A stretch of DNA of 64,000 bases from an uncultured bacterium (GTDB lineage: Bacteria > Verrucomicrobiota > Verrucomicrobiia > Verrucomicrobiales > DEV007), in contig CAXBMO010000004.1 in the NCBI GenBank assembly GCA_963977015.1, positions 389,061-453,060 on the forward strand, written 5' to 3'. The position numbers and the translations under genes are program-made. Below the pieces are notes generated by a model. That model ran no database searches and was not told the DNA's origin. It was given only the letters and a program-made list of their open reading frames with translations. Positions 1 through 14,592 of this stretch are shown here, piece by piece (the first letter of the stretch is position 1; every line of letters starts with the position of its first letter).

Positions 1-44
1 TCCTCATCTTTCCTCCGTGTCCTTTCAAACTCACCCCGTTTTCG

Positions 45-1490
45 ATGAGCACCTTTCTTCACCCCCATCCCAATCGCCGAGCCATGATTCGCGCCGGAGG
101 TATCGGGTTGCTCGGACTGGGAAGCAGCCATCTTGGACTGCTCAATTCCCTGGCGGATGAAGGCGGCCAACCCGCGATTCCGCCCACGGCGAAAAACGTC
201 ATCTACATCTTCCTCAGCGGTGGTCTCGCCCAGCACGAGAGCTTCGACATGAAGCCCAATGCGCCCGCCAATATCCGGGGCGAGTTTCGCGAAATCTCGA
301 CCCGAACGCCCGGGCTCCGCATTTGCGAGCATCTCCCGGAACTGGCAAAGCGGAGCGAAATGTGGTCGCTCTGTCGCTCGCTGACCCATTCGTCGAACGA
401 ACACTCCCACGGTCACCACATCATGTTGACGGGACGCTCCGACCTTCCTGATGGTTTCGATCCCACCAAGCCCAAGGAGAGCGACTGGCCCTCGATTGCG
501 GCAATCGCAAATCAGGTGGCCCCGGCCCCCAACAATCTGCCGCCGGCGATCGTGCTTCCAGACAAAATCGTCCACCGCACCGGACGGACGCTCCCGGGCC
601 AATTCGCCGGTCAAATGGGCCCCAGCCGCGATCCCTTCTTTCTCGAAGCCAGTCGCTACAACGCCGCCAGCTACGGCGCCTACCCCAACTACCTTTTCCA
701 CCACGAAACCGGTCAGCAGAACGGTGACCATTTCCGGTTTGATGCGCCCAGCCTCACCTTGCCGGAGGGAATGGACCTCGAGCGTCTGCGCGATCGCCTC
801 GGGCTCCTCGAACACCTGAATCACCAGCAGGCCGGGCTCGAGAACATGCTCGAAACCCAGCCGCACGATCGCTACCAATCCATTGCCGCCGACCTCCTCT
901 TCGATGAAAAGAGCAAAGCCGCGTTCGACGTCCACAGCGCTGATCCCAAACTTCAGGACGCTTACGGTCGCAACGCCTTCGGTTGGTCCCTCCTCCTGTC
1001 GCGTCAACTGGTCGAAGCCGGGGTGCGCCTTGTTCAGGTGAATCTCGGGAACAACGAAACCTGGGACACTCACCAGGCCGCCTTCCCCAATCTCAAGAAC
1101 TTCCTCCTCCCACCCATGGACCAGGCTGTTTCCGCCTTGTTGGATGATCTGCAATCCCGCGGGTTGTTGGAAGAGACGCTGGTCGTGATGGCGAGCGAGT
1201 TTGGGCGAACGCCCAAGGTCTTTACCCTGGCAGGCAAGAAGCTTCCCGGCCGCGATCATTGGGGCGCGGTCCAGAGCGTCTTTCTTGCCGGAGGCGGAAT
1301 TCAGGGCGGTCGAGTCATCGGCTCTTCCGACAAGTTCGGCGGCTACCCGGCCAGCTCCCCCCAAACGCCGGAGAACTTCGCCGCGACCATTTACCAGGCA
1401 CTCGGCTTACCCAAATCCGTCAAATGGCACGACCCCATCGATCGGCCGCATTTCGTCTATCACGGCGATCCGATTCCGGGACTGACCTGA
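45..1490 (+). CDS. DUF1501 domain-containing protein (Tat-like leader, sulfatase-like fold)
   Basis: NRRAMIRAGG leader; IYIFLSGGLAQHESFDMKP, WDTH, SEFGRTPK, GRDHW motifs typical of DUF1501. Confidence 0.9.
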   Translation: MSTFLHPHPNRRAMIRAGGIGLLGLGSSHLGLLNSLADEGGQPAIPPTAKNVIYIFLSGGLAQHESFDMKPNAPANIRGEFREISTRTPGLRICEHLPELAKRSEMWSLCRSLTHSSNEHSHGHHIMLTGRSDLPDGFDPTKPKESDWPSIAAIANQVAPAPNNLPPAIVLPDKIVHRTGRTLPGQFAGQMGPSRDPFFLEASRYNAASYGAYPNYLFHHETGQQNGDHFRFDAPSLTLPEGMDLERLRDRLGLLEHLNHQQAGLENMLETQPHDRYQSIAADLLFDEKSKAAFDVHSADPKLQDAYGRNAFGWSLLLSRQLVEAGVRLVQVNLGNNETWDTHQAAFPNLKNFLLPPMDQAVSALLDDLQSRGLLEETLVVMASEFGRTPKVFTLAGKKLPGRDHWGAVQSVFLAGGGIQGGRVIGSSDKFGGYPASSPQTPENFAATIYQALGLPKSVKWHDPIDRPHFVYHGDPIPGLT

Positions 1491-1587
1491 CTCTCTTGTC
1501 CGCGACACAACGGTTCTGCGTTTGGCCCAACCCACTGGGAAGAAAAGATGGCCGCGTAGTAGCTGCCCTCTTCCCCGCCAGAATCAC

Positions 1588-2322
1588 TCATAATTCTTTG
1601 ATCCGGACATTGCGAAACTGCACCAAGCTGGAAGCGCCACTCCAAGTGTCCTTCGCCGCGTGATAACCTCCATGATGCTGCAACGCGATGGGACCACTTT
1701 CCGGCACTCCCGGCAAGTGAGCCTTCTCGATCACAGTCTGATCGTTCAACACCACCGTGAGGCGATCGCCCTTCACCGTAATCACAAACGTGTTCCACTC
1801 GCCGACAGGCTTGTCCGCATTGACTTTGGGAGTCACGCCAGCCCTCACCTCGGCGCTCTGTTTGCCATCATTGCGATAACCATACACCTCACCGGAGCCA
1901 ATCGGCCAACACCAGATGTTCACTTGCGCCTTCGGGAAGCCACGCGTCAGGATTCCGGAGTCGGCTCCGGGCTGCGGATTCACGATGCGCTTCCCGTCCT
2001 CACCCAACTTATACGAACCATCGGGCAGAATCACCGGAACTTGGTAGATCCCTTTCTTCTCCTTGATTCGCCACTCCACATGCAGCGTAAAATCGCCATA
2101 AGCCTTCTCCGTCCAGAGATTCTTGTCGCCTTTGATCGCGGCATCCGGCTGACAATCGATCACCCCATCTTTCACCGACCAAATTCCTTCAGCGCCCTCC
2201 GCCTTCACAATCCAACCGCTCAGATCCTCGCCATTGAACAACGACGTCCAACCCTCCCCTGCTTGAGCAAGGGTCGCCAAAGAAAACAAGAAAGGAACTG
2301 CAACGATGAAGGGATTTTTCAT
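1588..2322 (-). CDS. DUF1080 / 3-keto-disaccharide hydrolase family secreted protein
   Basis: Signal peptide; WTSLFNGEDLSGW, DSGI, GEWNTF, IALQHH, FRNVRIKEL motifs. Confidence 0.9.
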   Translation of the reverse strand: MKNPFIVAVPFLFSLATLAQAGEGWTSLFNGEDLSGWIVKAEGAEGIWSVKDGVIDCQPDAAIKGDKNLWTEKAYGDFTLHVEWRIKEKKGIYQVPVILPDGSYKLGEDGKRIVNPQPGADSGILTRGFPKAQVNIWCWPIGSGEVYGYRNDGKQSAEVRAGVTPKVNADKPVGEWNTFVITVKGDRLTVVLNDQTVIEKAHLPGVPESGPIALQHHGGYHAAKDTWSGASSLVQFRNVRIKEL

Positions 2323-2358
2323 CCTGAAACAGGGACTCCCCTGCCCGGCTCGTCAAGT

Positions 2359-3444
2359 TCATGAATCGGCTTCCGATGACGAGGTCATGATCTTGGCGAC
2401 ATACGGTGAGGTCATCGCTCGAAGCAGGGCGCTGTAGTCGAGCTGAAAGGGAATCTCGGCGCCAACGGTCAGGGCTTCATGACCGCGGACCGAATTCACA
2501 ATCAGGTGATCACTGCTGGCGGCCACGATCTCGATGCCGGGTGGCGCCTTGAGGCCGGCCGGATCAATGTCCTGACGCCCGATCGCGAGAATCGATTGGG
2601 ACATGAGTCCGCCATCAGGTCTCGGTTTCACGACGCCAAACGCGGACTGCGCCACCTCGCCCCAGGGTTTGGAAGGCTTGATCTTCGACTCGATCACTTC
2701 GGCAAACAAGGTGATCGCATCGGTATGCAACCCCTTGATTGGTTGCCGGTGAAGAGGCTCACACCCGAGCAGCATCGCTTCGCCCAATCGGAGATTATTG
2801 ATGCGCCCGGTGTCGGCTCCGCCCAGCGCCCAATCAAGGTTGGCGGAGTTTCCGCCGGAGACGATGCTGACAATCCCGCCAAAGGTGGCGTCGACCGAAT
2901 CCGCCAAGGCGGAGAGATCGCCCATGTTCTTCGTGTCGGGTGAGACTCCGCTGCGGCAAGCGAGGTTCGTCCCGATCCCCTTGAACGCGATGTTCGGGAG
3001 GCACAACGCTTCGCGCACCGATTCCTCCAGGAGGTCGGGCATGATGCCTTCGCGGAGGTCTCCCAATTCGATCATGAGCACGACCCCATGCATGACATTC
3101 ATCTCTTGAGCGGCGGAAGACAGCTTGCGGATGACGGCCAATTCCGTGTTGAAGCTGACATCGGCAAGCGCAACGACCTTCTCTGCCTGACTCGCCATCG
3201 GCGTGCGGATGAGCGTCATCGATGCCGAAACGTAAGCGTTGCGCATCGATTCGATGTTCTCAACGCGGGAGTCACCAAGACCGGCTACACCAGCCCGAAG
3301 CCACACGTTTGCAATCTCTGGTAGACCCAGTGTCGACTTCGTTACGCCGGTGACGGAGATCCCACGCTGGCCGAGCCGTTGGACCAGGGTGAGAGCATTG
3401 TGATGGAGTTTTTCGAGATCGATCTGTAACCGCGGTGCGGTCAT
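2359..3444 (-). CDS. PLP-dependent alanine/ornithine racemase family protein
   Basis: GVTK (PLP lysine), GDSRVEN, ELGDLREG, SGGNS, LRLGEA, SSDHL motifs; 4-nt overlap with upstream DUF1611 gene. Confidence 0.85.
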   Translation of the reverse strand: MTAPRLQIDLEKLHHNALTLVQRLGQRGISVTGVTKSTLGLPEIANVWLRAGVAGLGDSRVENIESMRNAYVSASMTLIRTPMASQAEKVVALADVSFNTELAVIRKLSSAAQEMNVMHGVVLMIELGDLREGIMPDLLEESVREALCLPNIAFKGIGTNLACRSGVSPDTKNMGDLSALADSVDATFGGIVSIVSGGNSANLDWALGGADTGRINNLRLGEAMLLGCEPLHRQPIKGLHTDAITLFAEVIESKIKPSKPWGEVAQSAFGVVKPRPDGGLMSQSILAIGRQDIDPAGLKAPPGIEIVAASSDHLIVNSVRGHEALTVGAEIPFQLDYSALLRAMTSPYVAKIMTSSSEADS

Positions 3445-4643
3445 GCGGCCCCAGCCGCGACGCTCCCCCGAATATCCGGGAACGCCGAAAGCACCATCTC
3501 CACCAACCGCTCAGGAGACCGCGTCAGCGCGTCGGTCACGGGGATTCCCAATTCGCGCTCATACTTTACGATCGCAGCGGAAACCTCCGCATCGGTCATG
3601 TGTTCGTGGTTGATGGTCATGCCAATGACCTTGGTCGCGGCAAAGGTCTCGATCAGGTTGATCTCGCTCGCCGGAGTCGGCATCGCCATCTTGTCGAAGT
3701 CGCATCGATACTGTCTTCCCGGTGCGTGTTGCAGGACAACGCCGTCAGGACAACTGCCCCGGATGATGAAACTGGACGTCGAATAGGCGGGATGACTCAG
3801 CGCCCCCTGACCTTCGATCAGGATGACATCGGGATTCTCCTTCTCAAACGCTTCCACGATCGTGGCTTCCAGCTCGCCCGCGCAAAATTGGGAGGGAACC
3901 GCATCAAGAGCCATGCCGTAGCGAGCTCCCTGGATCAATCCGGTTTGACCGGTGCCAATCATGACGGCTCTGACTCCATGCTCTTCGAGAGCGCGGGCCA
4001 TCACGGTGGCCGTCGTGCGTTTCCCAATGGCGCAGTCCGTGCCAAGCACGGCAATGACCGGACAGGTAACCTCCGCAATGCGACCGGTGAAAACGCGAAG
4101 ATCTTTCTTGTCGCGAGGCCTTCGCACATCACGAATCACCACCTTGGATTTGGCAGACGCAGCGGCAAACTCCGGATCGTCATTCAAGAACTCATGAAGT
4201 CCATTCACAATGTTCATGCCAAGCTCAATGGCTCTCAGCATGAGCTTTCGTTCGGTAGGCGAAAGCATTCCCGTCGCCGGAGCGATCCCAAAAATGAAAT
4301 AGTCAGGGATGCGGTCCGCATGCGCCAAGGCCTCATCCAGATCCCGATAAATGGGGATTCCATTCGGTTTGTCATCAAGAACCGCACCGGTGTCCTGCCC
4401 CGCCTTCCCACTATCGATCACCGAAAGAATTTCGTATTTCTCCGAGTGCCGAACCAGTCCATTCGCCGTCTTTCCGTCGATGTTCCCGAAGTTGGCTTCG
4501 CAATAAACGATTGCGGTGGCGGATTGAAGGAGATCAACGATTGGCCGATACCGGGGCCGCTTGGTCAACTTGCGGTGAACTCCGGGACGCTGAGACGACA
4601 GACGAGGCTTCGGTGAAGCCGAAAAGGGTGGGTTTGTAGACAT
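3441..4643 (-). CDS. DUF1611 family P-loop protein (DgcN-like)
   Basis: GKTANGL, NGLHEFL, GTDCAIGKRTT, TGQTG, IEGQGALSHPAY motifs; ATG at 4643 preceded by GAGGAG. Confidence 0.85.
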   Translation of the reverse strand: MSTNPPFSASPKPRLSSQRPGVHRKLTKRPRYRPIVDLLQSATAIVYCEANFGNIDGKTANGLVRHSEKYEILSVIDSGKAGQDTGAVLDDKPNGIPIYRDLDEALAHADRIPDYFIFGIAPATGMLSPTERKLMLRAIELGMNIVNGLHEFLNDDPEFAAASAKSKVVIRDVRRPRDKKDLRVFTGRIAEVTCPVIAVLGTDCAIGKRTTATVMARALEEHGVRAVMIGTGQTGLIQGARYGMALDAVPSQFCAGELEATIVEAFEKENPDVILIEGQGALSHPAYSTSSFIIRGSCPDGVVLQHAPGRQYRCDFDKMAMPTPASEINLIETFAATKVIGMTINHEHMTDAEVSAAIVKYERELGIPVTDALTRSPERLVEMVLSAFPDIRGSVAAGAA

Positions 4644-4922
4644 GGATACTCCTCGAGCTAGGCTCAGAGGAGGCGACGGGATCGAGTCGACCGGAATTGG
4701 TCGAAAGTCAGCGAGAGGTCCCCACCAAGTTGGACTTGTGGATCCACTGTTACCACACACTGGTTGCCGCGTATAGGTTTACTTTCCGGCAACCCAATTC
4801 CCGCGATGCGATTTTCCAGGTTCCAGAAGCCGGCACCGTCCCCGCTCTTTCCCCACCCTGCCACGCTTGACAAGTTCACAGGCTCCCCACATTCTGCATC
4901 GGCCCTTCCGCAGATCACGGAG

Positions 4923-7088
4923 ATGACACCATTCCCACCAGACTATCAGCCCTCTCCCTTCTCGCTGCTTCTTCATCGGGGATGGATGCTAGTGCTCTTG
5001 CTGAACGCGCTCCTTCTCGGGCTCGCATCAGGATCTGACGAACTTCAAGGCGAAGATCCCGATTCCAGGAAACCCTACCAGGTCGCGGTGATCACCAGCA
5101 GTCAGGAAGGTTCCATCTCCACCACGATCGAAGCGATCAAGCGGTTTCTCGAAGCGGAAGCTCGCGACATCAATCGCGCCGGTGGGATTTCCGGCACGCC
5201 CATCAAACTCGTTTTCTATGACGACAACGAGGATGCCGAGCAAACCAAGGCCAAAGTCGAGGAAGCGCTCGGCGAAGAACGACTGATTGCAATGCTTGGA
5301 TTGTGGAGCTCATCCCGCGGGGCCGGGGTCCTCGATCTCATCGGCAGGAGCGGAGTTCCCTTCATCTCCGAAATCTCCCTGGATCAGCTTTTCCGAAGTC
5401 ATGACAACATCTTCACCCTAACCACTTCCGTCAGCGACGACACCCAGTTGTTTCGGCGCTTTCTTGCCGAAAATTTTTCCAGCGTTCAATTCGTCGGCGT
5501 GAACGACGACCTCTTCACCCTCGAGTTTCATCAGGCACTCGATGAGCTGAAAGGCACGTTGCAGATCATGGACGAACTTTGGGTCGACTCCAACAACGAG
5601 CTTTCCCAATCCGCCCTTGATGAAATCATCGCCGCCATCCGCGAACGCCAACCTTCCATCATCTGCATGGCGGCGGGAAGCTTCCGTGGAAGCGTCATTC
5701 TTCAGGCACTTGCCGAAGCCGACATCGATACACCCGTCTATTTTGCCACGGGCACGATCCAGCGGGTCTTGCGAAATCTGGATGGTGTCGATTACCGCGG
5801 AGCGCTCTATCAAAACAGCACGGATATCCCGTTTGTGGAAAACGAGCGCCTCGCTCAGATCCAACGTCACCCGGAATTCATCTCCCGACGCATCGACTAC
5901 TCCAATGACGACCTGGCCTACGGCTTTAGTTACGCCGACATGCTGGCCATGATTGCGGATGCCGCGAAGGACGCTCCTGACCTGAACCCCACCGGCCTGC
6001 GATCCCACATCAGTTCCCGGCTCCGGGAGATCAAAGCCGGTCAGCAGTTCTACGAAGGGGTCTGGCGCAACTGGGCCTTTACCAAGAATCGGGCCGTCTC
6101 ACAAGACAAGCTCCTTCACTGGCGCCCCAAGAACAGCCAGGACCTCAAGCTGTTCCCCACTCAATACCAGGCAAAACCAACCGGCCTCAGCCAGGTTCCC
6201 GTCGTTTATCTCAACATCGATATGGAGCAAATCCGATCGGTGGATAGTATGGAGAAGACGTTCGACGCGGACTTCTATATTTCCATGACCAGCAATCAGG
6301 AGATCACGCTGGACGACTTTGAATTCACCAATGCCTATCGCAGTAGCGGCAGCGGCGCGCCTCTCATCTCGAATCGCAATCTCAAGACGACCCAAATTCC
6401 CGGCAGCTCTGAAGTGCAACGGCTTTACAAAGTCTCCGGGCGTTTTCTCTTTGATCCAGACCTCGGAGACTACCCGTTCGACGAACAGCGATTCTCCATC
6501 TCGTTTCAACCGACCAACACCACCAGTCCCTTTCTGATTCAACCACCTCCCCCGACCCTGCGCGAGGATCGATTCGACATCGATGGATGGACCCTGTCTG
6601 AGGACGTCGGCTACGTCGGCACGGAAGAGGACATCATCTCCACCTTCCAGGATTACGGCTCCGGTCGCAGCATCCTCGCCTTCCACAAATTCAACTTCAC
6701 CTGGACCGCGCAACGCTACGTGCTGGACTACTACCTCCGCGTCGTCATCCCGCTCGCCCTCATTATGGTCGTCGCCTACTTCTCCGTCTTCATCCCGAAT
6801 TCCAAGTTCGACAGCGTCATCGCCATCCAGGTAACCGCACTCCTCTCCACCATCGCCCTCTACCTCGCCATCCCTAAAATGGACTCGGAGACCGCGACCA
6901 TGTCGGACCAGATCTTCCTCTTCACCGAAGCCGTCATCGGCCTCATGATCGCCTTCTCGATTTTGCGGGTGAACATCCCCAAACGCCTCCGCGTCCCGGC
7001 CACCCTCATCATGCTGGCCCAGGTCATCACCGTTCCCGTCCTCGTGCTCCTCATGGTCCGCTACGTCTGGATGGTTCAGGTTGGGTGA
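4923..7088 (+). CDS. Pentameric ligand-gated ion channel (Pro-loop family) with N-terminal type 1 periplasmic binding domain
   Basis: N-terminal INRAGGISGTPIKLVFYDD (LivJ-like binding protein); then beta-rich ECD with TFDADFY and DYPFDEQ; four C-terminal TM helices. Start 4923 or 4986. Confidence 0.8.
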   Translation: MTPFPPDYQPSPFSLLLHRGWMLVLLLNALLLGLASGSDELQGEDPDSRKPYQVAVITSSQEGSISTTIEAIKRFLEAEARDINRAGGISGTPIKLVFYDDNEDAEQTKAKVEEALGEERLIAMLGLWSSSRGAGVLDLIGRSGVPFISEISLDQLFRSHDNIFTLTTSVSDDTQLFRRFLAENFSSVQFVGVNDDLFTLEFHQALDELKGTLQIMDELWVDSNNELSQSALDEIIAAIRERQPSIICMAAGSFRGSVILQALAEADIDTPVYFATGTIQRVLRNLDGVDYRGALYQNSTDIPFVENERLAQIQRHPEFISRRIDYSNDDLAYGFSYADMLAMIADAAKDAPDLNPTGLRSHISSRLREIKAGQQFYEGVWRNWAFTKNRAVSQDKLLHWRPKNSQDLKLFPTQYQAKPTGLSQVPVVYLNIDMEQIRSVDSMEKTFDADFYISMTSNQEITLDDFEFTNAYRSSGSGAPLISNRNLKTTQIPGSSEVQRLYKVSGRFLFDPDLGDYPFDEQRFSISFQPTNTTSPFLIQPPPPTLREDRFDIDGWTLSEDVGYVGTEEDIISTFQDYGSGRSILAFHKFNFTWTAQRYVLDYYLRVVIPLALIMVVAYFSVFIPNSKFDSVIAIQVTALLSTIALYLAIPKMDSETATMSDQIFLFTEAVIGLMIAFSILRVNIPKRLRVPATLIMLAQVITVPVLVLLMVRYVWMVQVG

Positions 7089-7329
7089 CGTTCGGGCAGG
7101 CATCCTGCCATTACCAATTTGTCACCGACAAACGGGTAACCGATTGATCCCCCCCGCACGAACTTTCCTCCAAAACGTCCCTTGACCGTTCCGCCCATCT
7201 CGGATTCTCTATGCGGTATGCAAAGCAGGTTCACGACGGTTTCACCCCATCAGCCCAGCGCCGAATCCCGTGGCAAACTTCCAGACGTTATTTGACACTT
7301 CTGTCACCTGTAAAACGTTATCCCTAAAA

Positions 7330-7926
7330 ATGCTTACCCGGTTCCGCGATAAATATGGCGAGGGCGAAGGTGCCAGCGACGAGCTGAACCCTGCTTTCCT
7401 ATCACCACTTGAGGAACGAGCCATTGGCATCACGGAGCTTCTCAGTTCTTCAGGAGGCGCAACCTTTGCGAATGGTCTTTATCGCCTTCACGGGGCTGGA
7501 GACATCGGGGCTTGGACGAAAAACGTCGAAGCTACGTTCCCTGAGTATGAGGGGGCGTTGGTTTGTTTCGGATATGATTGGCTCGGCCGACACTTCGCTC
7601 TTGATACCACAACGGACAAAGGACAGTGGCAGATTTTACTCATCGAGCCAGGTGCTGGGGAAGCGATGCAGATTCCCAGCTCATTTGCGGATTTCCACAA
7701 CATTGAATTAGTTGAGTATGCTTCAGATGCGCTCGCTGAACCGTTTTTTATAGAGTGGCTTTCTTCGGGTGGCGCATTTCCAAAACCCACAGAGTGTATC
7801 GCTTACAAGACACCACTCTTCCTGAATGGATCAGATACTATTGAGAATTTGGAGGTCTCTGATATGGACGTGTATTGGCATTTGTGCGGTCAACTTCGCC
7901 AATCAATCACAACCGGATTAGGGTAG
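7330..7926 (+). CDS. Tdi1/DUF1851-like toxin immunity protein (gene cassette 1)
   Basis: GLYRLH, FGYDWLGRHF, C-x-AYKTPLFLNGSDTIENLEVSDMDVYW resemble the GAD-like/DUF1851 immunity family; lower GC than flanks. Confidence 0.7.
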   Translation: MLTRFRDKYGEGEGASDELNPAFLSPLEERAIGITELLSSSGGATFANGLYRLHGAGDIGAWTKNVEATFPEYEGALVCFGYDWLGRHFALDTTTDKGQWQILLIEPGAGEAMQIPSSFADFHNIELVEYASDALAEPFFIEWLSSGGAFPKPTECIAYKTPLFLNGSDTIENLEVSDMDVYWHLCGQLRQSITTGLG

Positions 7927-8961
7927 GCCCAGGGTTTGAACCGGTTTGAACCTGCCCTCCACACCACGGGACATGCGGGTCCGCACGCGGCGGTTCCAGT
8001 CAGTCATGCAAGTCCCCGTGGACCAGGCAAGGGCGCCATCTCCATGAACTCTCTTGGATGCTTTGAATTGGTTTTCAGTTTGAGTATCTGACTCGCTTCG
8101 CTCGGCTCTCTGCCCGCAACCCTACTCGGTTTGTGGCTCGCCCAATCGGGTTCAACGCCTTGAGCAGGTGCTCGGGTCGGTTCATCCGATTGGTTCGGTC
8201 CTTCATCGGGTGGATCCTCCGTTGGGCGCAAGCGCCGTCCAGTTCGTTTCCGCCATTTGGTGAGCCCTCCGGTTTCTTAGTTTAAACGGGCGATTCAACA
8301 CCCCCGGCTCGTCTTCCACGACTACTACGACCTCGGCTGACATTTACCTCCGGGACTGAATGAGGGAATTTCGCTGTGTTGTGCTAGCTCGTTCCATCCC
8401 GTCGGTCTCGGATGAGGTTCTTGTTCATCGGCTGATGGCTTTGATGTCGCTTTGGCGCTCCACTCTCCGGGCAGCCCAATGGCTGTCGGTGTCCGCTTCG
8501 CTCCCATTCCCATAACCTGCCTCCCCACATTCGGTTACCCGGCCGCAGTTGGCCTCTGCTAGTTCTTTGCATCCTTCAGATGTTCATTCTATAAACAGGG
8601 GACTTGAACGAATGGCGCAAAGATAAGCGGGGTCATCGATAAACTTAGCCGGGTCTCCACAGGGATTTATTCCCGTGGAACAGAGACCACCCACCAGACC
8701 ATTTCCATCCATACGCTCGCCCCGGCTGGCCTTGCGCCAGTCGAGCGCTGACGCCGTTTGGCACCGTCAAAACCCAGTTCGTGTGGCTGGAAGGAGTCAG
8801 CGCTCCACCGGCATGAAGCCGGTGGGGGCGATGGGTTTCAGGAGGCGGTTCTGGTGGTTGATCGAGCACCCACCGGGGCGAGCCCGGAGGAGAGCTAAGG
8901 TGGTTAACCTTGCGCCATTCGGACTTGAACCCCTTTTGGTTTCAGCCCATGCTGGACGTAC
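7917..8961 (-). mobile_element. ORF-less group IIC intron inserted in an attC site
   Basis: Minus strand: 5' end GTACGTCCAGCATGGG after exon TTGT; GTCAGCCGAGGTCGTAGTAG and GAAGGACCGAAC (DII/DIII landmarks); DV GAACCGCCGCGTGCGGACCCGCATGTCCCGTGGTG with CGC triad; DVI ending CCTACCC. No RT ORF. 3' boundary uncertain (7917-7921). Confidence 0.85.
8610..8920. mobile_element. 311-bp non-autonomous element (MITE, IS4-like ends) nested in the intron
   Basis: Terminal inverted repeats GAATGGCGCAA...TTGCGCCATTC (15/17 when extended); perfect 10-bp direct repeat GGACTTGAAC at 8600-8609 and 8921-8930. Confidence 0.85.
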
Positions 8962-9084
8962 ACAATGCGCCGCACACAGACACGGACCCTGGGGAGTTAT
9001 CAGAAGGCACCTCACTCACAACATTCGTCAGCCTGCTGCGAACTGCTCCCCCTCGGTCCTTACTGGTCAGCGCTGACGTTCTGC
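8962..9084 (+). other. attC site 1 (right part; R'' box split by the intron)
   Basis: ACAATGCGCCGCAC..GGACCCTGGGGAG pairs imperfectly with CTCCCCCTCGGTCC..GGTCAGCGCTGACGTT; R' GTTCTGC at 9078-9084. Confidence 0.75.
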
Positions 9085-9093
9085 TTTTAAGTC

Positions 9094-9378
9094 ATGGCAT
9101 CGACATTCTTCGTTCAACAGCGGACAGGTGAGACTTGGAACGAGCTCACCGGCAAGTTCATGGAATTTTGTATTCAGATCAAGGGGGTGACGCGGGGTGG
9201 ATGCCACGAAGGGGATTCAAACCCAGCGGAGCTTGACGGGCAGGTCTATGCCTCTGTTGCGATCCCTGATCACTCACCTGACCTTATGACATATCTAACG
9301 GAGTGGGCGAGCTCTGAAGATCGACAAATATGGTCTAAAGAACAGTTTGCAGAACAAGGCGTCAATCTCAATACCTGA
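9094..9378 (+). CDS. Hypothetical protein (gene cassette 2)
   Basis: 94-aa ORF starting 9 nt after GTTCTGC and running into the complementary GCAGAAC box. Confidence 0.65.
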   Translation: MASTFFVQQRTGETWNELTGKFMEFCIQIKGVTRGGCHEGDSNPAELDGQVYASVAIPDHSPDLMTYLTEWASSEDRQIWSKEQFAEQGVNLNT

Positions 9379-9472
9379 ACCGCTCCAAGTTCAAACTGCC
9401 ATGACCATCACCATTTAACCCGGAAGTCGGAGCGTGCCCTCGGGCAGGTGTATAAGGAATTCGACGTTCACA
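9349..9472 (+). other. attC site 2
   Basis: R'' GCAGAAC (complement of the cassette start GTTCTGC) followed by AAGGCG; imperfect hairpin (ACCTG/CAGGT, CGCTCC/GGAGCG); R' GTTCACA; 124 bp. Confidence 0.7.
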
Positions 9473-9473
9473 G

Positions 9474-9743
9474 ATGAAAGAGCGATCACGCTTCCGATTA
9501 CTTTCAGGTTTTCTCCTGCTGATCATCGGCACGATGGGCGGCATTGCCCCCTTGAAAGACGGCCTACATTTCGTGACTGGGATCGACAAGTCTTACATCT
9601 CAAATACTACTGACACTGTCACTCACGCAGATCTCTGGCTGATGCATAACGGCGTCGGGAAGCTTGTAGCCACAGTGACCGGATTATACATCCTTCTTCC
9701 AGCGTTCTGGTCCGCATTGACGAAGAAGAAACAGAAGAATTGA
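9474..9743 (+). CDS. Small two-TM membrane protein (gene cassette 3)
   Basis: ATG 1 nt after R' GTTCACA; two hydrophobic segments; no downstream attC recognised. Confidence 0.6.
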   Translation: MKERSRFRLLSGFLLLIIGTMGGIAPLKDGLHFVTGIDKSYISNTTDTVTHADLWLMHNGVGKLVATVTGLYILLPAFWSALTKKKQKN

Positions 9744-9869
9744 AATGAAAAGCAGTTTCCCGGTTAACCATTGATTGATCTTCGCGGATCTGACAATTGA
9801 GTTTTGGCTGAGTTGGATGTTCATCCTATCGATCGATAGGGGATTTGCCCAGGTTCCCTGCTTCTCTTC

Positions 9870-12014
9870 TCAACGCGTGATGACGCCGGAACTGTAGAGC
9901 ATGTGCGGGTATTCGACTTGGTCCAGAATCGTGAAATGCCCCTTGCGCGTGGCCTCGGCTTTCCCGTCACGGAGAAGCGAGAATTCCGGGGTGAAGGTTT
10001 CTCCTTTCGGCAACGGCACGGTAAAGCGGGTGATACCCTGGGGCGCCTCTTGTTCGTAGAGTCGATCGCCCACCTGAATGCGCAGGGTGCCCGGCTTGGC
10101 GAGGAATGCGAGCAGCTCGATTTCATTGCGTGGCTTTGTGCTTCCCCTGAAGCTCCACGTCTTGCCCTTGCCGGGATCAACCTCGGTGTGGTTCTTGCGA
10201 TAGAAATAGTAGAGGACGTCGCGAACAATCGGCGGTTGTTCGCCGGTTTTGAACCACTGCGTATAATAGGTATTCAGATCGTGCGGGGCAAAGCCGAGGC
10301 AGGACGATGGTTGCATGGCCTGCTCGGAATAATCCGACCAGCTGATGAGAAACGTCCAGTCTGCCCCGGTTTCGATGGCCTCGTGCCACAGGCCGGTCAG
10401 GGTCTGGCTCCCTCCGGCTTCCCAGAGAGCGCAGCCGCGCGTTCGCACGTCCTGCGCGCAAATCGGATAGACCACCTTGGTGGTGAGATCCCGAACTTTG
10501 GCGGTCCAATCGAACGGCCGGGGTTCGCGCGGTCCCCAATGCGCCATGCCGTAGGCAATCGGTGAAAAATCCTGCAGCGTGTTGTAGCTGTTGAACTGGC
10601 AGACCAGGGCAATCGGATGCCCCTGGCGCTCAAGTTCCGCGATGACTCTCTTCCACCAGCCCGGGCTGTGACGTTCCGTCAGCCACATGCTCAAAACCAC
10701 CCGACCGTCCTCCAATCGAAGCGTGGCAGGATGCTGGAGAATGCGCTGAATGGTGGGTGAATTGGCGTATTCGATCGGGTCCGCATCCTGGTCGCCCTCG
10801 CCGCGAATGCCGCTCTTTCCTCCCGAATACACCGCGGGAAGGATCTTGAACTCCGGGTCGACATCCCGAGCGGCATCCAGCAGGGCGAAACTGTTTTTCT
10901 GGAAATAGCTTTGGCCGTTGGTGGGGTGCGGATCGGACCAGAAATCGGCCAGAAACCCGTCGATCCCCATCCGGCGCGCCAAACGCACCTCCTCGGTTCG
11001 CGCCATCAGCATCAGTTCATCCTGGCTGAGGTTGGACGGCAACGGGGGACGCGGCAACGGGCGGTAGAGCAGTTCCGTCCCCGCGTCGGCCCGGTCCTTT
11101 TTCTGGTTCGCCGAAGGATTCAGGACCGTCCGGGTGTACCAGGACAATCCCGGGTCGTATTGATCCACGCCGGATCCGTAGATGAAGTAGTAGGCAAACA
11201 CCTTCCGCGGGCTTTGATGCAACTCGGCCAAGGGCAACTGGTCGAACGGCAGCAGGCTCCGGCGAACCGCATCCACCTGGCCCGCCATGCACACATTGTC
11301 CAACGCCCAGCCCCCAACCGCCGCATCCGGCCCCTCGCTGGAAAAGATCAACCGGGTAAACGGAGTCGCGGGATTGGAAACAGGAACCGATTTGCGCACC
11401 TGAGGACCCGAGCGTTGCCAGGTGCTTTTCGTGGCGTCGCGCAGCGAAATCGTGGCATCACCTATCTCCGGCAGCAGGACCGAAAGATGATACCACCGTC
11501 CCGTTTCCAAGGCACAGATTTCCGTGACCTGCCCAGCTGAATCCTCCACGGAAAGCGAGCCGTTGCGCCCGAGATGCAAACCGATCCCAGTCCCTTCGGC
11601 AGACAACAACTTGCCGGCAAATTCCACACCGCCCGGTTCGCTCCCTTCGTCCAAGCGGAAGTCGAATCCGAGATAGAGTTCCCCCTCCGGCGGGGCCAGA
11701 AAATCGTGGCGAATCCCGAGACCAGAACCGCCGGTCGCACTTTCGTCCTTCAGCACGAGCCCCTTCCCCGTCGCCTCGTTCTTTACGAAGGGCGATTCGT
11801 CCCCGGAAGAGAGTTCCAGGCTGACTCCCTCCACCAAATCGCCAACCATCTGCCACGGATGGGGCGGCAGCTTCCCCGCCGGGTATTCGTCAAAGCGATC
11901 GAGCGGCAAGGTTTCGACCGTTCCGGTTTGCGCGGACAACTCTTCGACAGCGTTGCATCCCAGGCTGAGAATGAGAATGGGCAGCAGACCAAAAATGGGA
12001 TTAAGAAATCGCAT
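9870..12014 (-). CDS. GH71-like (endo-alpha-1,3-glucanase) lipoprotein with N-terminal beta-sandwich domain
   Basis: Lipobox LSLGC; RKVFAYY, EVRLARRMGIDGF, SWSDYSE, WFKTGEQP..DVLYYFYR resemble GH71. Confidence 0.7.
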   Translation of the reverse strand: MRFLNPIFGLLPILILSLGCNAVEELSAQTGTVETLPLDRFDEYPAGKLPPHPWQMVGDLVEGVSLELSSGDESPFVKNEATGKGLVLKDESATGGSGLGIRHDFLAPPEGELYLGFDFRLDEGSEPGGVEFAGKLLSAEGTGIGLHLGRNGSLSVEDSAGQVTEICALETGRWYHLSVLLPEIGDATISLRDATKSTWQRSGPQVRKSVPVSNPATPFTRLIFSSEGPDAAVGGWALDNVCMAGQVDAVRRSLLPFDQLPLAELHQSPRKVFAYYFIYGSGVDQYDPGLSWYTRTVLNPSANQKKDRADAGTELLYRPLPRPPLPSNLSQDELMLMARTEEVRLARRMGIDGFLADFWSDPHPTNGQSYFQKNSFALLDAARDVDPEFKILPAVYSGGKSGIRGEGDQDADPIEYANSPTIQRILQHPATLRLEDGRVVLSMWLTERHSPGWWKRVIAELERQGHPIALVCQFNSYNTLQDFSPIAYGMAHWGPREPRPFDWTAKVRDLTTKVVYPICAQDVRTRGCALWEAGGSQTLTGLWHEAIETGADWTFLISWSDYSEQAMQPSSCLGFAPHDLNTYYTQWFKTGEQPPIVRDVLYYFYRKNHTEVDPGKGKTWSFRGSTKPRNEIELLAFLAKPGTLRIQVGDRLYEQEAPQGITRFTVPLPKGETFTPEFSLLRDGKAEATRKGHFTILDQVEYPHMLYSSGVITR

Positions 12015-12164
12015 GGTTTTCGGCACCCCTAAGCTCGAGGGCTACGGAAAGGCAAGTTTTCGTCGACAATCGCGCCCCAACATCCAGTCGACGCAGTCCC
12101 CAGTTCAACGCTCCCCCATTGCAAAGCGCCGCAAGGCCTTCGTTCCCACAACGCCCATGCTGGG

Positions 12165-12223
12165 CACACACAAGGCATTGTAGTGGAACGCTGATCGCGT
12201 CCGCTAAACGCGAGACGTTCTGC
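12165..12223 (+). other. Degenerate short attC-like site before the BrnT/BrnA cassette
   Basis: ACAAGGCATTGTAGTGGAACGC-TGATC-GCGTCCGCTAAACGCGAGAC hairpin ending in R' GTTCTGC (12217-12223). Confidence 0.55.
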
Positions 12224-12253
12224 TAAGAAAAGCCTTGAGCCCCTTCAGATTTC

Positions 12254-12270
12254 GGTATAAAAAATATACC
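12254..12270. promoter_or_regulatory. Palindromic operator / promoter of brnTA-1
   Basis: GGTATA-AAAAA-TATACC directly before the GTG start; TTGAGC upstream at 12235. Confidence 0.65.
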
Positions 12271-12271
12271 G

Positions 12272-12544
12272 GTGGACTTCGAATACGATCCCGACAAGAG
12301 TCAATCCAACCAAGAAAAGCACGGGATTGATTTTGAAGAAGCACAACGTCTCTGGGTTGATGAAGACGGATTGGAAATTCCCGCTATTTGTGAAATTGAG
12401 CCAAGATTTGCTCGGTTTGCAATGCTTGATGGCAAGGTGTGGGCAGCGTTTTTCACGATGAGAGGAGAAACCATCCGAATCATATCCGTAAGACGAGCAC
12501 GAACCAAAGAAGTTGAACTCTATGACAGCGGAACAATTGGATAA
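12272..12544 (+). CDS. brnT: BrnT family toxin
   Basis: FEYDPDKSQSNQEKHGIDFEEA...IRIISVRRAR. Confidence 0.9.
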   Translation: MDFEYDPDKSQSNQEKHGIDFEEAQRLWVDEDGLEIPAICEIEPRFARFAMLDGKVWAAFFTMRGETIRIISVRRARTKEVELYDSGTIG

Positions 12545-12800
12545 AATTTTCGATAAAGGCGAAGAGGATATTTTGCCTTACCTGGAATTGGCTAAAGCCG
12601 TGCGCCCCGGCCACAAATCAAAGAGAGTCAATGTTGATTTTCCCTCATGGATGATCGAAAGGCTTGATCGTGAGGCGAGTCGGTTAGGAGTTCCGCGCCA
12701 GTCCCTGATTAAAGTGTGGATCGCCGAAAGACTATCGGACACAGAATCGAAAAAGAAGCAGAACAAAAGCGTGGAGACAGACGTGGCTCCCGCAGCGTAG
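12522..12800 (+). CDS. brnA: BrnA/CopG-type (RHH) antitoxin
   Basis: KRVNVDFPSWMIERLDREASRLGVPRQSLIKVWIAERL; overlaps toxin end. Confidence 0.85.
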   Translation: MTAEQLDKIFDKGEEDILPYLELAKAVRPGHKSKRVNVDFPSWMIERLDREASRLGVPRQSLIKVWIAERLSDTESKKKQNKSVETDVAPAA

Positions 12801-13038
12801 TTCTCAAAAAGAGAGAAAAGGGACGGGCCTTTTTTACGTAGAAAATCGCTTCATCCATAGATTTCGTATTTCCGGCTTGGGCCAGCTACGATCAATCCGG
12901 GGTGGCGGTGGGAACGTGGTCAATCAGGTCGACTACCGGTACGATGATTGTTGGAAGTTGCGTTAGTTAGTGCGAAGAAGCGGAGCGGATCCTGAGCCAC
13001 CAATCGCCATGCAATGCGTCTCATTCCTTTGGTCCGGC

Positions 13039-14592
13039 CTACGGCAGCTTCAGGCACACCGCTTCACGATCGTTCCTCACGAGAAGATAGTTGCCGGCGA
13101 GGGCGGGGGCGTTCCAGGTTTTGCTGGTGAGGGGCGAGATGCGGCCGAGTTCGGTGAATGCTTCGGGGTCGATTTGGACGAGGGCGACGTCGCCGGTTTC
13201 GGCTTGGATGAGGAGGTAGCGGTCCCCCACCCTGAGGTTCTGGCCGTAGCCGTATTTGGCGCCTTTCCAGACGCGTTTGCCGGTGGCGACATCCATGGCG
13301 ATGAGCTTGCCTTCGTCCAACCCGTAGGCGTGGCCGTCGACGACGATGGGGCTGCTGAATTTGGTTTTCATCTGGCTGGCGTCCCAGATGGATTCAACGG
13401 TCCAGGGGTCGCCGACGGTGAGTTGCAGCAGGTTGGTGGGCGTTCCGTAGCTGGCGGCGACGAGGACTTGATTCGGGCTGACCTGAATCGGCTGAGCCAC
13501 TTTGGGAAACCCACCCGGCCAATCGAATCGCCAGAGTCGATCGCCTGTTTCCGGATCGAAGCCACTGACATTGTCGCCAAGGATCGTGACGACCTGATCC
13601 TTGCCATCGAGATTGAGCAGAACCGGAGAACTGTAGCTGGCGGGGCCATCACCGGATTGCCAAACCGGTTTTCCTGTCTCCCGATCAAACGCGAGCACGG
13701 CGTTGGCTTCGTTTTCACCACCGGTGACGACGACGAGGTTTTCGAGCACGAGGGGCGAGGCGGATTTCCCCCATTCGACATTGGCAAGGCCTAGTTCCTC
13801 AAGAACAGGACGAGTCCAGAGAAGCTTGCCGTCTGAAAGATGGAGGGCGTTGAGGATGCCGGTGGCGCCGAGCACGTAAACGACGCCGTCGCGAATCGTG
13901 GGAGTCGCGCGCGGACCGTCGCCGCCCATGGCTTCGCTGAACCGGGCGGGGTCGGTGTGCGACCAGAGCAGTTGGCCGGTTTGGACGTGGTAACAGGTGA
14001 CGAGTTCGTCCCCGCCGCGTTGTTCCTGAGTCACGGCGCGTTCGCCCACGACGGAAAACGCGGACCAGCCAAGGCCGATGGGGATGCGCCAGAGTTCTTC
14101 CGGCGGGTTGGTTTCCCAATCCGGGTTCAAGCCGGGATCGGGGACGAAACCATCCATGGCCGCGCCGAGGAAGGAGGGAAAGTCCGCCAGATCCGGGTCT
14201 CGGCTTTGAGCGAGGGAAGGAGACTCTGCGGGAACCGGCAGGGCTTCGAGGTTTTCGCCCGGTTTTTCCGTCCACTTCCAGGTGAAACTGGCGGGGAGTG
14301 CTCCGTTGGCGGAACCGTCGTAGCGCAAGGTCGTGGCGGCGAAGGCGATGAGCAGGGCAGTCCCGAATATCCCGGCGAGGAGCGACTTCCAGCGAAAGCG
14401 CCCCGCCAAAAAGACCCACCAGAGACCGACGAGCAACGCCGTGAGAATGAGCGTTGGATACACCAGGATGACGCGCATGTGGTGCTCGATGAGGAAGAGG
14501 GTGTTGAGAATCGCGGTCGAGGCGAAAATGAGGGTGAGCGGAATCCAAAATCGATAGTTTGGAGTCGGTGAGACGTTGGAGGAGGTGCTCAT
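13039..14592 (-). CDS. PQQ-like (BamB family) beta-propeller membrane protein
   Basis: Three N-terminal TMs; repeated GxxxW propeller motifs; GPRATPT. Confidence 0.85.
   Translation of the reverse strand: MSTSSNVSPTPNYRFWIPLTLIFASTAILNTLFLIEHHMRVILVYPTLILTALLVGLWWVFLAGRFRWKSLLAGIFGTALLIAFAATTLRYDGSANGALPASFTWKWTEKPGENLEALPVPAESPSLAQSRDPDLADFPSFLGAAMDGFVPDPGLNPDWETNPPEELWRIPIGLGWSAFSVVGERAVTQEQRGGDELVTCYHVQTGQLLWSHTDPARFSEAMGGDGPRATPTIRDGVVYVLGATGILNALHLSDGKLLWTRPVLEELGLANVEWGKSASPLVLENLVVVTGGENEANAVLAFDRETGKPVWQSGDGPASYSSPVLLNLDGKDQVVTILGDNVSGFDPETGDRLWRFDWPGGFPKVAQPIQVSPNQVLVAASYGTPTNLLQLTVGDPWTVESIWDASQMKTKFSSPIVVDGHAYGLDEGKLIAMDVATGKRVWKGAKYGYGQNLRVGDRYLLIQAETGDVALVQIDPEAFTELGRISPLTSKTWNAPALAGNYLLVRNDREAVCLKLP

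Follow-up and report, generated by a model that had tools for sequence, protein, structure and literature searches.

The question raised by this locus is whether a protein whose named relatives are all labelled as substrate-binding proteins of transporters is instead a receptor-channel and, if so, which of its halves receives the signal that opens the pore. The gene lies on the + strand of the window (the whole stretch of 64,000 nucleotides that was analysed), as do all the features described below. It runs from an ATG at 4923 to a stop codon ending at 7088 (4923..7088, 721 aa plus stop), in a reading frame that is uninterrupted from 4764 to 7088. A GGAG lies shortly before the ATG. The public gene call and the ESM Atlas entry both start at residue 22; the start at 4923 is supported by an orthologue, L001 (79% identity), which has an ORF of 722 aa and aligns with the protein from residue 6 onwards. 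A search of Rfam around the gene found no riboswitch or other family (a single match to sR38, E 0.14, was taken as chance), no sigma-70-like promoter was found at the gene, and every terminator-like match around it lies within coding sequence.

The hydropathy profile contains one N-terminal segment, aa 13-41 (4959..5045; Kyte-Doolittle, window 19, maximum 1.74), which is preceded by His/Arg, and four C-terminal segments (aa 599-629, 629-651, 660-685, and 689-721), in keeping with the four C-terminal TM helices proposed in an earlier note on this DNA. The N-terminal segment is a putative signal peptide or signal anchor, which would place the part downstream of it in the periplasm. An additional weak segment, aa 246-264, falls within the periplasmic binding protein (PBP) domain.

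That domain, a type-I Venus-flytrap of the LivJ/ANF-receptor class, occupies aa ~50-395 (5070..6107) and was recognised by Pfam, by comparison with the PDB, by a family profile, and in the Atlas model. The match to Peripla_BP_6 covers aa 53-293 (E 1.1e-16, 61.8 bits against a cut-off of 31.7), which bears out the LivJ-like domain of about 400 aa described earlier; Peripla_BP_5 also matches (E 6.8e-8), and several relatives have a precomputed match to PF01094, ANF_receptor. As a single sequence, the clamshell matches 3hut (1.5e-10) and 3ip5 (5.7e-7) in the PDB, the latter alignment extending up to aa 357 of the fusion protein and to residue 299 of the 356 in the chain. With the full-length family profile (A1), the matches include 3lop (7.7e-14) and the Venus-flytrap domain of CaSR, 5fbh (6.7e-5), so the earlier comparison with a sensor fold of the iGluR/mGluR type was a fair one. 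When aa 45-405 of the Atlas model were superposed on clusters of Leu-binding-type PBPs of 372-399 aa, 337-357 residues were aligned, with TM values of 0.80 by query and 0.73-0.78 by row. The clamshell is a complete two-lobe domain of the Peripla_BP_6/HAAT type.

The nature of the solute is less constrained than the fold. The PBPs nearest to the clamshell are of the generic Leu/Ile/Val- or amide-type, and Ser130 in lobe 1 pairs with Ser79 of 3ip5, as counted on the alignment. Position 226 in proteins of the LivJ/Atu2422 type is the acidic residue that grips the alpha-amino group of the ligand. The counterpart of this position, again counted on the alignment, is Thr276, which varies across the family, so it is not certain that the solute is an amino acid.

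The second half is harder to see. Pfam and NCBIfam searches of the single protein returned no channel family, the sole trace being TIGR00860 LIC (E 0.067), and the channel half as a single sequence has a weak match in the PDB, to the transmembrane domain (TMD) of nAChR alpha7 (E 0.004). One part of the check suggested in the earlier note, the finding of Peripla_BP_6, came out as foreseen, and the other, the finding of Neur_chan_LBD, did not on the single protein. The blindness of Pfam extends to the family: 0/63 channel halves pass PF02931/PF02932, 2/63 reaching E 0.016 for PF02931, and a search of the host genome with PF02932 gave nothing even at E<=1. A profile built from the channel halves of the protein and its relatives (A2, 63 rows) matches 129 PDB sequences at E<=0.01. 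These include 4yeu, an ELIC/GLIC chimera (1.9e-8), DeCLIC 6v4a (1.3e-7), and GLIC (E 5e-8 to 6e-7), where the match spans residues 17-308 of a chain of 317; with GLIC 3tls (E 5e-8), for example, profile positions 18-304 correspond to chain positions 21-312. Stand-alone relatives, which match the profile at 1e-25 to 1e-30, exceed the PF02932 cut-off in 4/11 cases. In the Atlas model of the protein (pTM 0.75, pLDDT 0.78), aa 410-721 superpose on stand-alone clusters of ligand-gated ion channels of the pentameric type (pLGICs) of 319-341 aa, with TM 0.80-0.81 by query and 0.74-0.79 by row in what is a comparison of predicted with predicted structures; 22-45% of the members of these clusters have PF02931 (Neur_chan_LBD). 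The expectation that the C-terminal half would model on GLIC is in line with the profile match to GLIC and with the likeness of the Atlas model to stand-alone pLGIC clusters. By its profile, its Pro-loop, and its TM features, the protein is a member of the pLGIC/Pro-loop superfamily, and it is predicted to assemble as a pentamer and to conduct ions in a ligand-gated manner.

The periplasmic beta-sandwich, equivalent to the extracellular domain (ECD) of other pLGICs, covers aa 423-598 (6189..6716), as judged from the A2 alignment to GLIC and from the Atlas model. The motifs quoted in the earlier note were all located in the translation (TFDADFY at aa 446, YPFDEQ at 517, YYLRVVIPL at 603, and VIAIQVTALL at 632). 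YPFDEQ, the Pro-loop (aa 517-522; 6471..6488), lies opposite YPFDSQ of GLIC, has an invariant core, and lacks flanking cysteines; indeed, inspection of the translation by eye found no cysteine in aa 410-721. The absence of the Cys pair at the beta6-beta7 loop makes this a Pro-loop member of the prokaryotic type rather than a strict Cys-loop receptor. Hydropathy and alignment to GLIC place M1 at aa ~603-625 (6729..6797), with the conserved P610 and with the pre-M1 R598 just upstream, M3 at aa ~660-684 (6900..6974), and M4 at aa ~693-717 (6999..7073), which contains an invariant P705; the M3-M4 loop, of about 8 aa, is short, as is typical of prokaryotic forms. According to the accessible text of Jaiteh (2016), the most conserved features of the superfamily are the salt bridge between the Pro-loop Asp and the pre-M1 Arg, together with the Pro. 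Here, P518, F519, D520, R598, and P610 are invariant in 60/60 and 63/63 aligned sequences.

The pore helix M2 (aa 629-652; 6807..6878), with prime numbering taken from the alignment to GLIC M2 and columns counted in 63 rows, carries D630 at -2', A at 2', T at 6', L at 9', A at 13', L at 16', and K at 20'. The 6' Thr and the 9' Leu are present in 63/63, and two blocks, 5'-10' and 13'-15', are invariant. The residue at -2' is acidic in 62/63 (E48/D14/N1), as it is in GLIC, which points to a cation-selective pore; Lys occupies 20' in 53/63, which is unusual for a cation channel. Further features in common with GLIC of Gloeobacter violaceus (3eam, 3tls) are YPFD in the Pro-loop, the Arg before M1, the Pro within it, a residue at 0' that is not basic, and the short M3-M4 loop. 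GLIC differs in having Ile at 9', where the fusion family has Leu (followed by Pro-Lys at 19'-20'), and in having no N-terminal sensor domain.

These counts bear on the simplest explanation, namely that the public annotation is right and that the protein is a membrane-tethered PBP serving an ABC importer, with the C-terminal half acting as a non-conducting anchor or oligomerisation scaffold. All named relatives indeed carry the labels ABC transporter or branched-chain amino-acid substrate-binding protein, and the host genome (95% complete) has four BPD_transp_2 permease matches. However, a mere anchor would not be expected to hold both M2 blocks invariant in 63/63 or to keep the Pro-loop/pre-M1 pair, and the label mirrors what Pfam sees, which is the PBP half alone. 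Furthermore, no ABC partner is evident, since the fusion protein is the sole Peripla_BP_6 match in the host genome, the four permeases are all on other contigs, and no neighbour is conserved. No ABC gene was found near the gene within window positions 1-14000, and linkage to an importer of the LivHMGF type was found neither there nor among 80 loci. In a comparison of 756 ORFs from these loci and the window, the best neighbour cluster reached 5 loci, as against 77 sources for the fusion gene itself, and no neighbour in the window is common even to the orthologues of the same genus. Genes of about 390 aa that lie 3' in L001, L002, and L005 were considered as a shared partner and rejected, being unrelated (an aldose epimerase, a MoxR ATPase, and a GDSL lipase). 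ABC linkage is not strictly needed for function, so its absence makes the importer claim less likely but does not dispose of it. Taken with the conservation of the pore, we regard the importer explanation as highly improbable. The soluble HAAT/LivJ-type PBPs (3hut, 3lop, 3ip5, 4gnr, 1z15) share fold and family with the clamshell, but they are free in the periplasm and dock on ABC permeases, whereas the clamshell here is covalently fused to a channel.

The architecture itself is already known. Tasneem, Iyer, Jakobsson, and Aravind (Genome Biol 2004/5; PMC549065), in the accessible part of their text, described in silico PBP-I::pLGIC fusions of the alpha-proteobacteria Magnetospirillum magnetotacticum and Bradyrhizobium japonicum, so that the novelty is less than the earlier note implied. 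Judged on that part, those fusions resemble the present one in being a single polypeptide that runs from a PBP-I domain through a pLGIC ligand-binding domain to a 4-TM channel without Cys-loop cysteines; they differ in their alpha-proteobacterial hosts, the host here being of a marine Verrucomicrobiales genus. None of the best 80 loci has Bradyrhizobium or Magnetospirillum in its title. What is new here is the Pfam-blind clade, its spread in a Hyphomicrobiaceae-type family, its occurrence in Verrucomicrobiales, and the uniform label "ABC transporter substrate-binding protein".

Tasneem et al. also proposed, in the same accessible text, that the PBP captures or concentrates a solute and delivers this to the ECD site of the channel itself, whereupon the pore opens and feeds chemotaxis. 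This ligand relay was put forward for exactly this architecture, and it is favoured by the stand-alone PBP genes that adjoin pLGIC genes in other bacteria (PMC549065). Its chemotactic output fits poorly here and is unlikely in this host, since neither Flagellin_N nor MCPsignal has a match in the 95%-complete genome. Moreover, a clamshell tethered on a short conserved linker is ill-placed to feed an inter-subunit pocket. On balance, we consider such a relay improbable.

How, then, might the clamshell act on the pore? Another possibility is that it is an accessory modulator, as are the N-terminal domain (NTD) of DeCLIC and the amino-terminal domain of iGluRs, and that it tunes kinetics or sensitivity while the pore is primarily gated through the canonical inter-subunit site of the ECD, or by protons or divalent ions. 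DeCLIC (Desulfofustis, 6v4a) and 9ftg are, like the fusion protein, prokaryotic pLGICs with a periplasmic N-terminal domain about as large as the channel. In the accessible text of PMC12664993, the DeCLIC NTD is the only pLGIC N-terminal domain to have been characterised, in part, and it is reported to speed both activation and deactivation rather than to provide the agonist site; its two lobes resemble calcium-binding regulatory regions and not a PBP clamshell. The closest solved relatives also respond to protons (GLIC) or to calcium (DeCLIC). The likeness to DeCLIC does not extend to the sequence of the N-terminal half, where no homology to NTD1/NTD2 was found and PBPs were matched instead: the DeCLIC match is limited to the end of the ECD and the TMD (A2 positions 105-307 to chain 437-632, E 1.3e-7), and A1 likewise aligns with the channel part alone (536-738 to 438-633).

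The pattern of conservation can be read in two ways. Mean pairwise identity is 0.36 in the PBP half, 0.33 in the linker, 0.45 in the ECD, and 0.49 in the TMD. The better conservation of the ECD than of the PBP half favours a modulator, as do the invariant or near-invariant aromatics in ECD stretches aligned to ligand-binding loops (F447, F451, Y452, F468, Y502, F508, F510, Y564, and Y588), and the canonical ECD site may still work. Yet the conservation of the ECD could be explained equally well by an interface with the clamshell, and the greater variability of the PBP half is what is expected if the PBP sets the specificity of a constant output module. All domains are under purifying selection: dN/dS against the 79% orthologue is ~0.054 for the PBP, ~0.042 for the ECD, and ~0.039 for the TMD, the synonymous sites being nearly saturated. 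The very function of a PBP fold is the binding of a specific solute, and its strict retention (dN/dS ~0.05), along with the conserved linker (aa 396-422; 6108..6188), argues for a role beyond that of a kinetic trim. In this linker, which joins the clamshell to the ECD, L410 and Q414 are invariant (60/60) and P412 is present in at least 90%, which suggests a fixed geometry. A purely modulatory clamshell is, in our judgement, rather unlikely.

The preferred explanation is that the fusion protein is an inner-membrane receptor-channel in which the binding of a solute in the clamshell is predicted to be the activating signal, a prediction to which we would give slightly less than even weight. It builds on the observed order of the domains, the homology of both halves, and the strict conservation of the residues of the pore and of ECD-TMD coupling. 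In this mechanism, the signal sequence would export the clamshell and the pLGIC beta-sandwich to the periplasm, leaving M1-M4 as the membrane part. Five copies would assemble around a pore selective for cations, with acidic residues in a ring at -2', as in GLIC, and a gate at the 9' Leu. A small periplasmic solute would bind the clamshell, and the signal would reach M2 by way of the linker, which is short and conserved, and the ECD. What results would be an ion flux or a change in membrane potential, as opposed to uptake by an ABC pump or classical chemotaxis. The stronger claim, that closure of the clamshell on its solute suffices on its own as the agonist event and so opens the putative pentameric pore of the Cys-loop type, we advance more tentatively.

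The animal Venus-flytrap proteins (CaSR/mGluR and the iGluR amino-terminal domain) similarly have the PBP-I fold N-terminal to a membrane signalling module. Their clamshells are dimers, set on 7-TM scaffolds or on tetrameric P-loop scaffolds. On a scaffold of the pentameric type, five clamshells cannot pair symmetrically. Gating by clamshell closure would be, on the nicotinic scaffold, a natural counterpart of the way in which clamshells are coupled to the pore in glutamate receptors, but with Venus-flytrap modules arranged five-fold about the axis.

The clade is present in 91/151 sampled genomes of a Hyphomicrobiaceae-type alpha-proteobacterial family, where the nearest relatives of the protein are found, and it also occurs in a single marine Verrucomicrobiales genus, probably through transfer. 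Fusion is the rule in the clade: 60/63 sequence matches are 691-825 aa long and 89/150 best representatives have at least 600 aa. A more distant Pfam-blind group matches, with its own profile, both a PBP (4gnr, 1.1e-9) and ELIC (3.6e-10); using hhalign, A1 aligned with a member of this group, P0139, from aa 338 on, and the PBP nature of the latter is seen just with the profile of the group itself. The transporter annotation is due to the detection by Pfam of the PBP half alone, and hundreds of such fusions are filed as ABC-transporter binding proteins with a channel half that is invisible to Pfam.

The physiology of prokaryotic pLGICs with an extra N-terminal domain is a standing question on which this family bears. 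Multidomain associations of pLGICs are evidenced at the genome level only, according to the accessible text of Jaiteh (2016), and the literature searched here contained no experiments on any PBP-fused pLGIC. The PBP clamshell is the easiest sensor to de-orphanise, through expression of the soluble domain and a ligand screen, and the family offers a practical route to the first natural agonist and gating mechanism of a multidomain bacterial pLGIC. If the clamshell does gate the pore, a nutrient or osmolyte signal would be converted directly into a change in membrane potential, here in a host whose genome yielded neither a flagellin nor a chemoreceptor gene, and, with the module in ~60% of the sampled Hyphomicrobiaceae-type genomes, solute-triggered electrical signalling would be common there and would have been overlooked.

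The gene at 4923–7088 on the forward strand of the window occupies a long, single open frame (4764–7088), and its ATG at 4923, with GGAG directly 5', gives a product of 721 aa. Residue 22 is the start in the public gene calls (700 aa) and in the ESM Atlas record. The ATG at 4923 is the better start because a 79%-identical orthologue aligns from residue 6 and has an ORF of 722 aa. This start regains a His- and Arg-containing stretch ahead of the hydrophobic segment at aa 13–41; the conserved N-terminal 21 residues (window 4923–4985), which include the charged stretch before the signal-peptide core, are missing from the public call and the Atlas. The fusion of a type I periplasmic binding (PBP) domain, the clamshell, to a pentameric ligand-gated ion channel (pLGIC) is real, intact and selectively maintained. 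Compared with that orthologue, the gene as a whole has a dN/dS of about 0.05 (PBP 0.054, ECD 0.042, TMD 0.039), ratios that are rough because synonymous sites are near saturation.

The analysis establishes the order of the domains and the homology of both halves. In the N-terminal half, Pfam gave Peripla_BP_6 at aa 53–293 (E 1.1e-16; 61.8 bits against a cut-off of 31.7), in agreement with the LivJ-like binding domain proposed in an earlier note, and also Peripla_BP_5. A PDB sequence search led to binding proteins of the branched-chain amino-acid type (3hut, 1.5e-10; 3ip5, 5.7e-7, with an alignment extending to aa 357). A profile of 60 full-length relatives strengthened the PBP matches (3lop, 7.7e-14) and reached the Venus-flytrap domain of the calcium-sensing receptor (5fbh, 6.7e-5); in the PDB profile search, no chain covered both halves. 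In the Atlas model (pTM 0.75, pLDDT 0.78), aa 45–405 aligned over 337–357 residues with stand-alone Leu-binding-type clusters of 372–399 aa (TM 0.80 for the query, 0.73–0.78 for the row). These Pfam, PDB, profile and model alignments together show that the clamshell is complete. By our own count on the PDB-search alignment, Ser130 lies opposite Ser79 of 3ip5, and Thr276 occupies the position of its Asp226. In view of the binding sites of LivJ-type proteins, this replacement argues against assuming that the ligand would be an alpha-amino acid. The Atlas structural table also contains a 949-aa cluster of 259 members with Peripla_BP_6 and MS_channel_2nd (an MscS-type channel), so the same clamshell is joined to a second, unrelated channel scaffold.

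As a single sequence, the channel half (aa 410–721) is nearly invisible: a scan of the C-terminal half gave no Pfam family, TIGR00860 LIC only at E 0.067, and the TMD of the nAChR alpha7 at E 0.004. The matching region was cut from related loci, 78 of 80 of which had an intact C-terminal ORF, and a profile was built from the window and 62 of these 78 loci, the other 16, partial matches or near-duplicates, having been removed manually. Against the PDB, this channel profile matched 129 sequences at E ≤ 0.01, among them the ELIC/GLIC chimera 4yeu (1.9e-8), DeCLIC (1.3e-7) and GLIC (5e-8 to 6e-7); profile positions 18–304 aligned with residues 17–308 of the 317 of GLIC, spanning the complete ECD and M1–M4. 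At the level of the family profile, the GLIC and 4yeu alignments support the relation of this half to GLIC and ELIC; the four motifs quoted in the earlier note were all found (aa 446, 517, 603 and 632), and, as it had said of the Pro-loop ECD, cysteines are absent, the translation having none in its C-terminal 312 residues.

Scanned singly, none of the 63 channel halves passed PF02931 or PF02932, and two reached E 0.016. Among 1.84 billion representatives, the channel profile found 2305 proteins at E ≤ 1e-3, 769 at ≤1e-10 and 105 at ≤1e-30. Eleven stand-alone matches (327–426 aa, ~1e-25 to 1e-38) tie the clade transitively to recognised pLGICs, since nine carry a Neur_chan family at E ≤ 1e-3 and four pass the PF02932 cut-off. 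With predicted models on both sides, aa 410–721 of the Atlas model resembled bacterial clusters of 319–341 aa (TM 0.80–0.81 for the query, 0.74–0.79 for the row), in which 22–45% of members have Neur_chan_LBD. One cluster of 407 aa that resembles the channel half in structure (TM 0.84/0.66) has the label 'Viruses 50%, Uroviricota', with a phylum known for just two members; a pLGIC homologue carried by a phage and an error of binning are both conceivable. An antisense ORF of 334 aa entirely within the channel-coding part (window 6099–7103, reverse strand), with no Pfam family, has most probably arisen by chance, the DNA being rich in G+C.

The residues of the pore and of its coupling are strongly conserved: the Pro-loop P518-F519-D520, the pre-M1 R598, P610 in M1, and Thr 6', Leu 9' and Ala 13' in M2 are invariant across the family. 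According to Jaiteh et al. (2016), the salt bridge between the Pro-loop Asp and the pre-M1 Arg, and the Pro, are the superfamily's most conserved features. M2 positions 5'–10' and 13'–15' are identical in 63/63 rows; the -2' residue, numbered from the GLIC M2 alignment, is acidic in 62 of the 63 (E 48, D 14, N 1; Asp630 in the window), and the 0' residue is non-basic. The cation-selectivity filter of GLIC is its Glu at -2', and because the acidic -2' is as in GLIC, we infer that the channel would be cation-selective, with the caveat that 53/63 rows have Lys at 20'. The predicted assembly is a homopentamer.

Activation by the binding of a solute in the clamshell is our preferred reading, held tentatively. 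It is favoured because the fusion is the rule in the clade (60 of 63 sequence matches have 691–825 aa, and 89 of the best 150 representatives at least 600 aa), because a distant, Pfam-blind group also combines PBP with ELIC at the profile level, because the linker carries invariant residues, and because the PBP half is more variable (mean pairwise identity 0.36 versus 0.45 and 0.49 in the channel half). The main rival, a purely modulatory clamshell with the gate at the canonical ECD site or controlled by pH or divalent ions, is suggested by the DeCLIC precedent and by the well-conserved ECD loops; we consider it somewhat less likely than activation through the clamshell. According to PMC12664993, the N-terminal domain of DeCLIC is the only partly characterised one among pLGICs, and the full-text literature searched, with subscription journals mostly outside its coverage, yielded no experiments on a pLGIC fused to a PBP.

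Activation via the clamshell is also preferred because neither an ABC partner nor chemotaxis machinery is evident. Tasneem, Iyer, Jakobsson and Aravind (Genome Biol 2004/5, PMC549065) found the same architecture in Magnetospirillum magnetotacticum and Bradyrhizobium japonicum and proposed that the extra domains bind ligands beforehand on behalf of chemotaxis receptors. A ligand relay is improbable here; the 95%-complete genome (6.9 Mb), in which the fusion gene is single-copy, has no match to Flagellin_N or MCPsignal. A membrane-tethered binding protein of an ABC importer, its C-terminal half a silent anchor, would suit the public label and is very improbable. The fusion gene is the sole Peripla_BP_6 match in the genome, and the four BPD_transp_2 permease matches are all on other contigs.

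Upstream, 162 bp off and divergent from the channel gene, lie an Orr-like (ornithine racemase family) gene and a DUF1611/DgcN-like N-acetyltransferase gene (within window 2359–4760, reverse strand; 339.8 and 165.6 bits, each against an NCBIfam cut-off of 480). An amino-acid-modifying pair adjoining an amino-acid-type sensor is suggestive; the pair is beside the channel gene in 0/80 related loci. Downstream, at 7270–9743 on the forward strand, are a Tdi1_C-like ORF of 218 aa (E 1.3e-7) and three small ORFs without a family, in a region of lower G+C (0.51–0.55) and strongly negative AT skew with no tRNA gene nearby. Clustering of 756 ORFs from the 80 loci and the window placed the fusion gene in 77 sources and the top neighbour cluster in five loci; the window shares no neighbours with related loci, same-genus orthologues included, and the flanks of the gene contain neither an Rfam family nor a promoter-like site.

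Of 303 relatives confirmed in the genome collection, the 80 best are mostly labelled Hyphomicrobiaceae or Hyphomicrobium. In the Hyphomicrobiaceae-type family of one such relative, a match at E ≤ 1e-30 occurs in 91 of the 151 species genomes sampled, some of which carry two or three copies. One genome has a same-strand tandem of two copies (G460:C3:1594786-1598519), so that heteromeric channels are conceivable. In the window's phylum, 4/401 sampled genomes have a match at E ≤ 1e-10, a strong one only in the window's own genome; the gene is present in 3/3 other genomes of the genus, weakly matched in 1/15 from other genera of the family, and found in 0/12 from other families of the order. In a tree built from 73 full-length rows (4 of 77 cluster rows, <650 aa, were dropped; midpoint root only), the window groups with three Verrucomicrobiota rows (SH-aLRT 98) amid alpha-proteobacterial rows. 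This pattern fits a putative transfer from alpha-proteobacteria to one Verrucomicrobiales genus. The stretch occurs in marine metagenomes, among other DNA datasets, and in no RNA dataset among those listed.

In a further Verrucomicrobiota genome (G337), locus L082 (1198–3450, reverse strand) codes for a PBP::pLGIC protein of 750 aa that belongs to a different type, with Peripla_BP_6 (3.2e-37), ANF_receptor (1.3e-20), a weak Neur_chan_memb (8.7e-4) and a channel-profile match of only 3.5e-18. Among 25 long (640–810 aa) distant relatives, 22 have no Pfam family at all, and a profile of 28 such proteins matched the branched-chain amino-acid binding protein 4gnr (1.1e-9, profile 21–358) and ELIC (3.6e-10), so the PBP::pLGIC fusion is far commoner than domain databases indicate. 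This kind of fusion has been known in silico since 2005; the clade described here is frequent in one family of alpha-proteobacteria but seldom met in Verrucomicrobiota. Its channel half escapes Pfam, and the annotation of the clade, "ABC transporter substrate-binding protein", is uniformly wrong.
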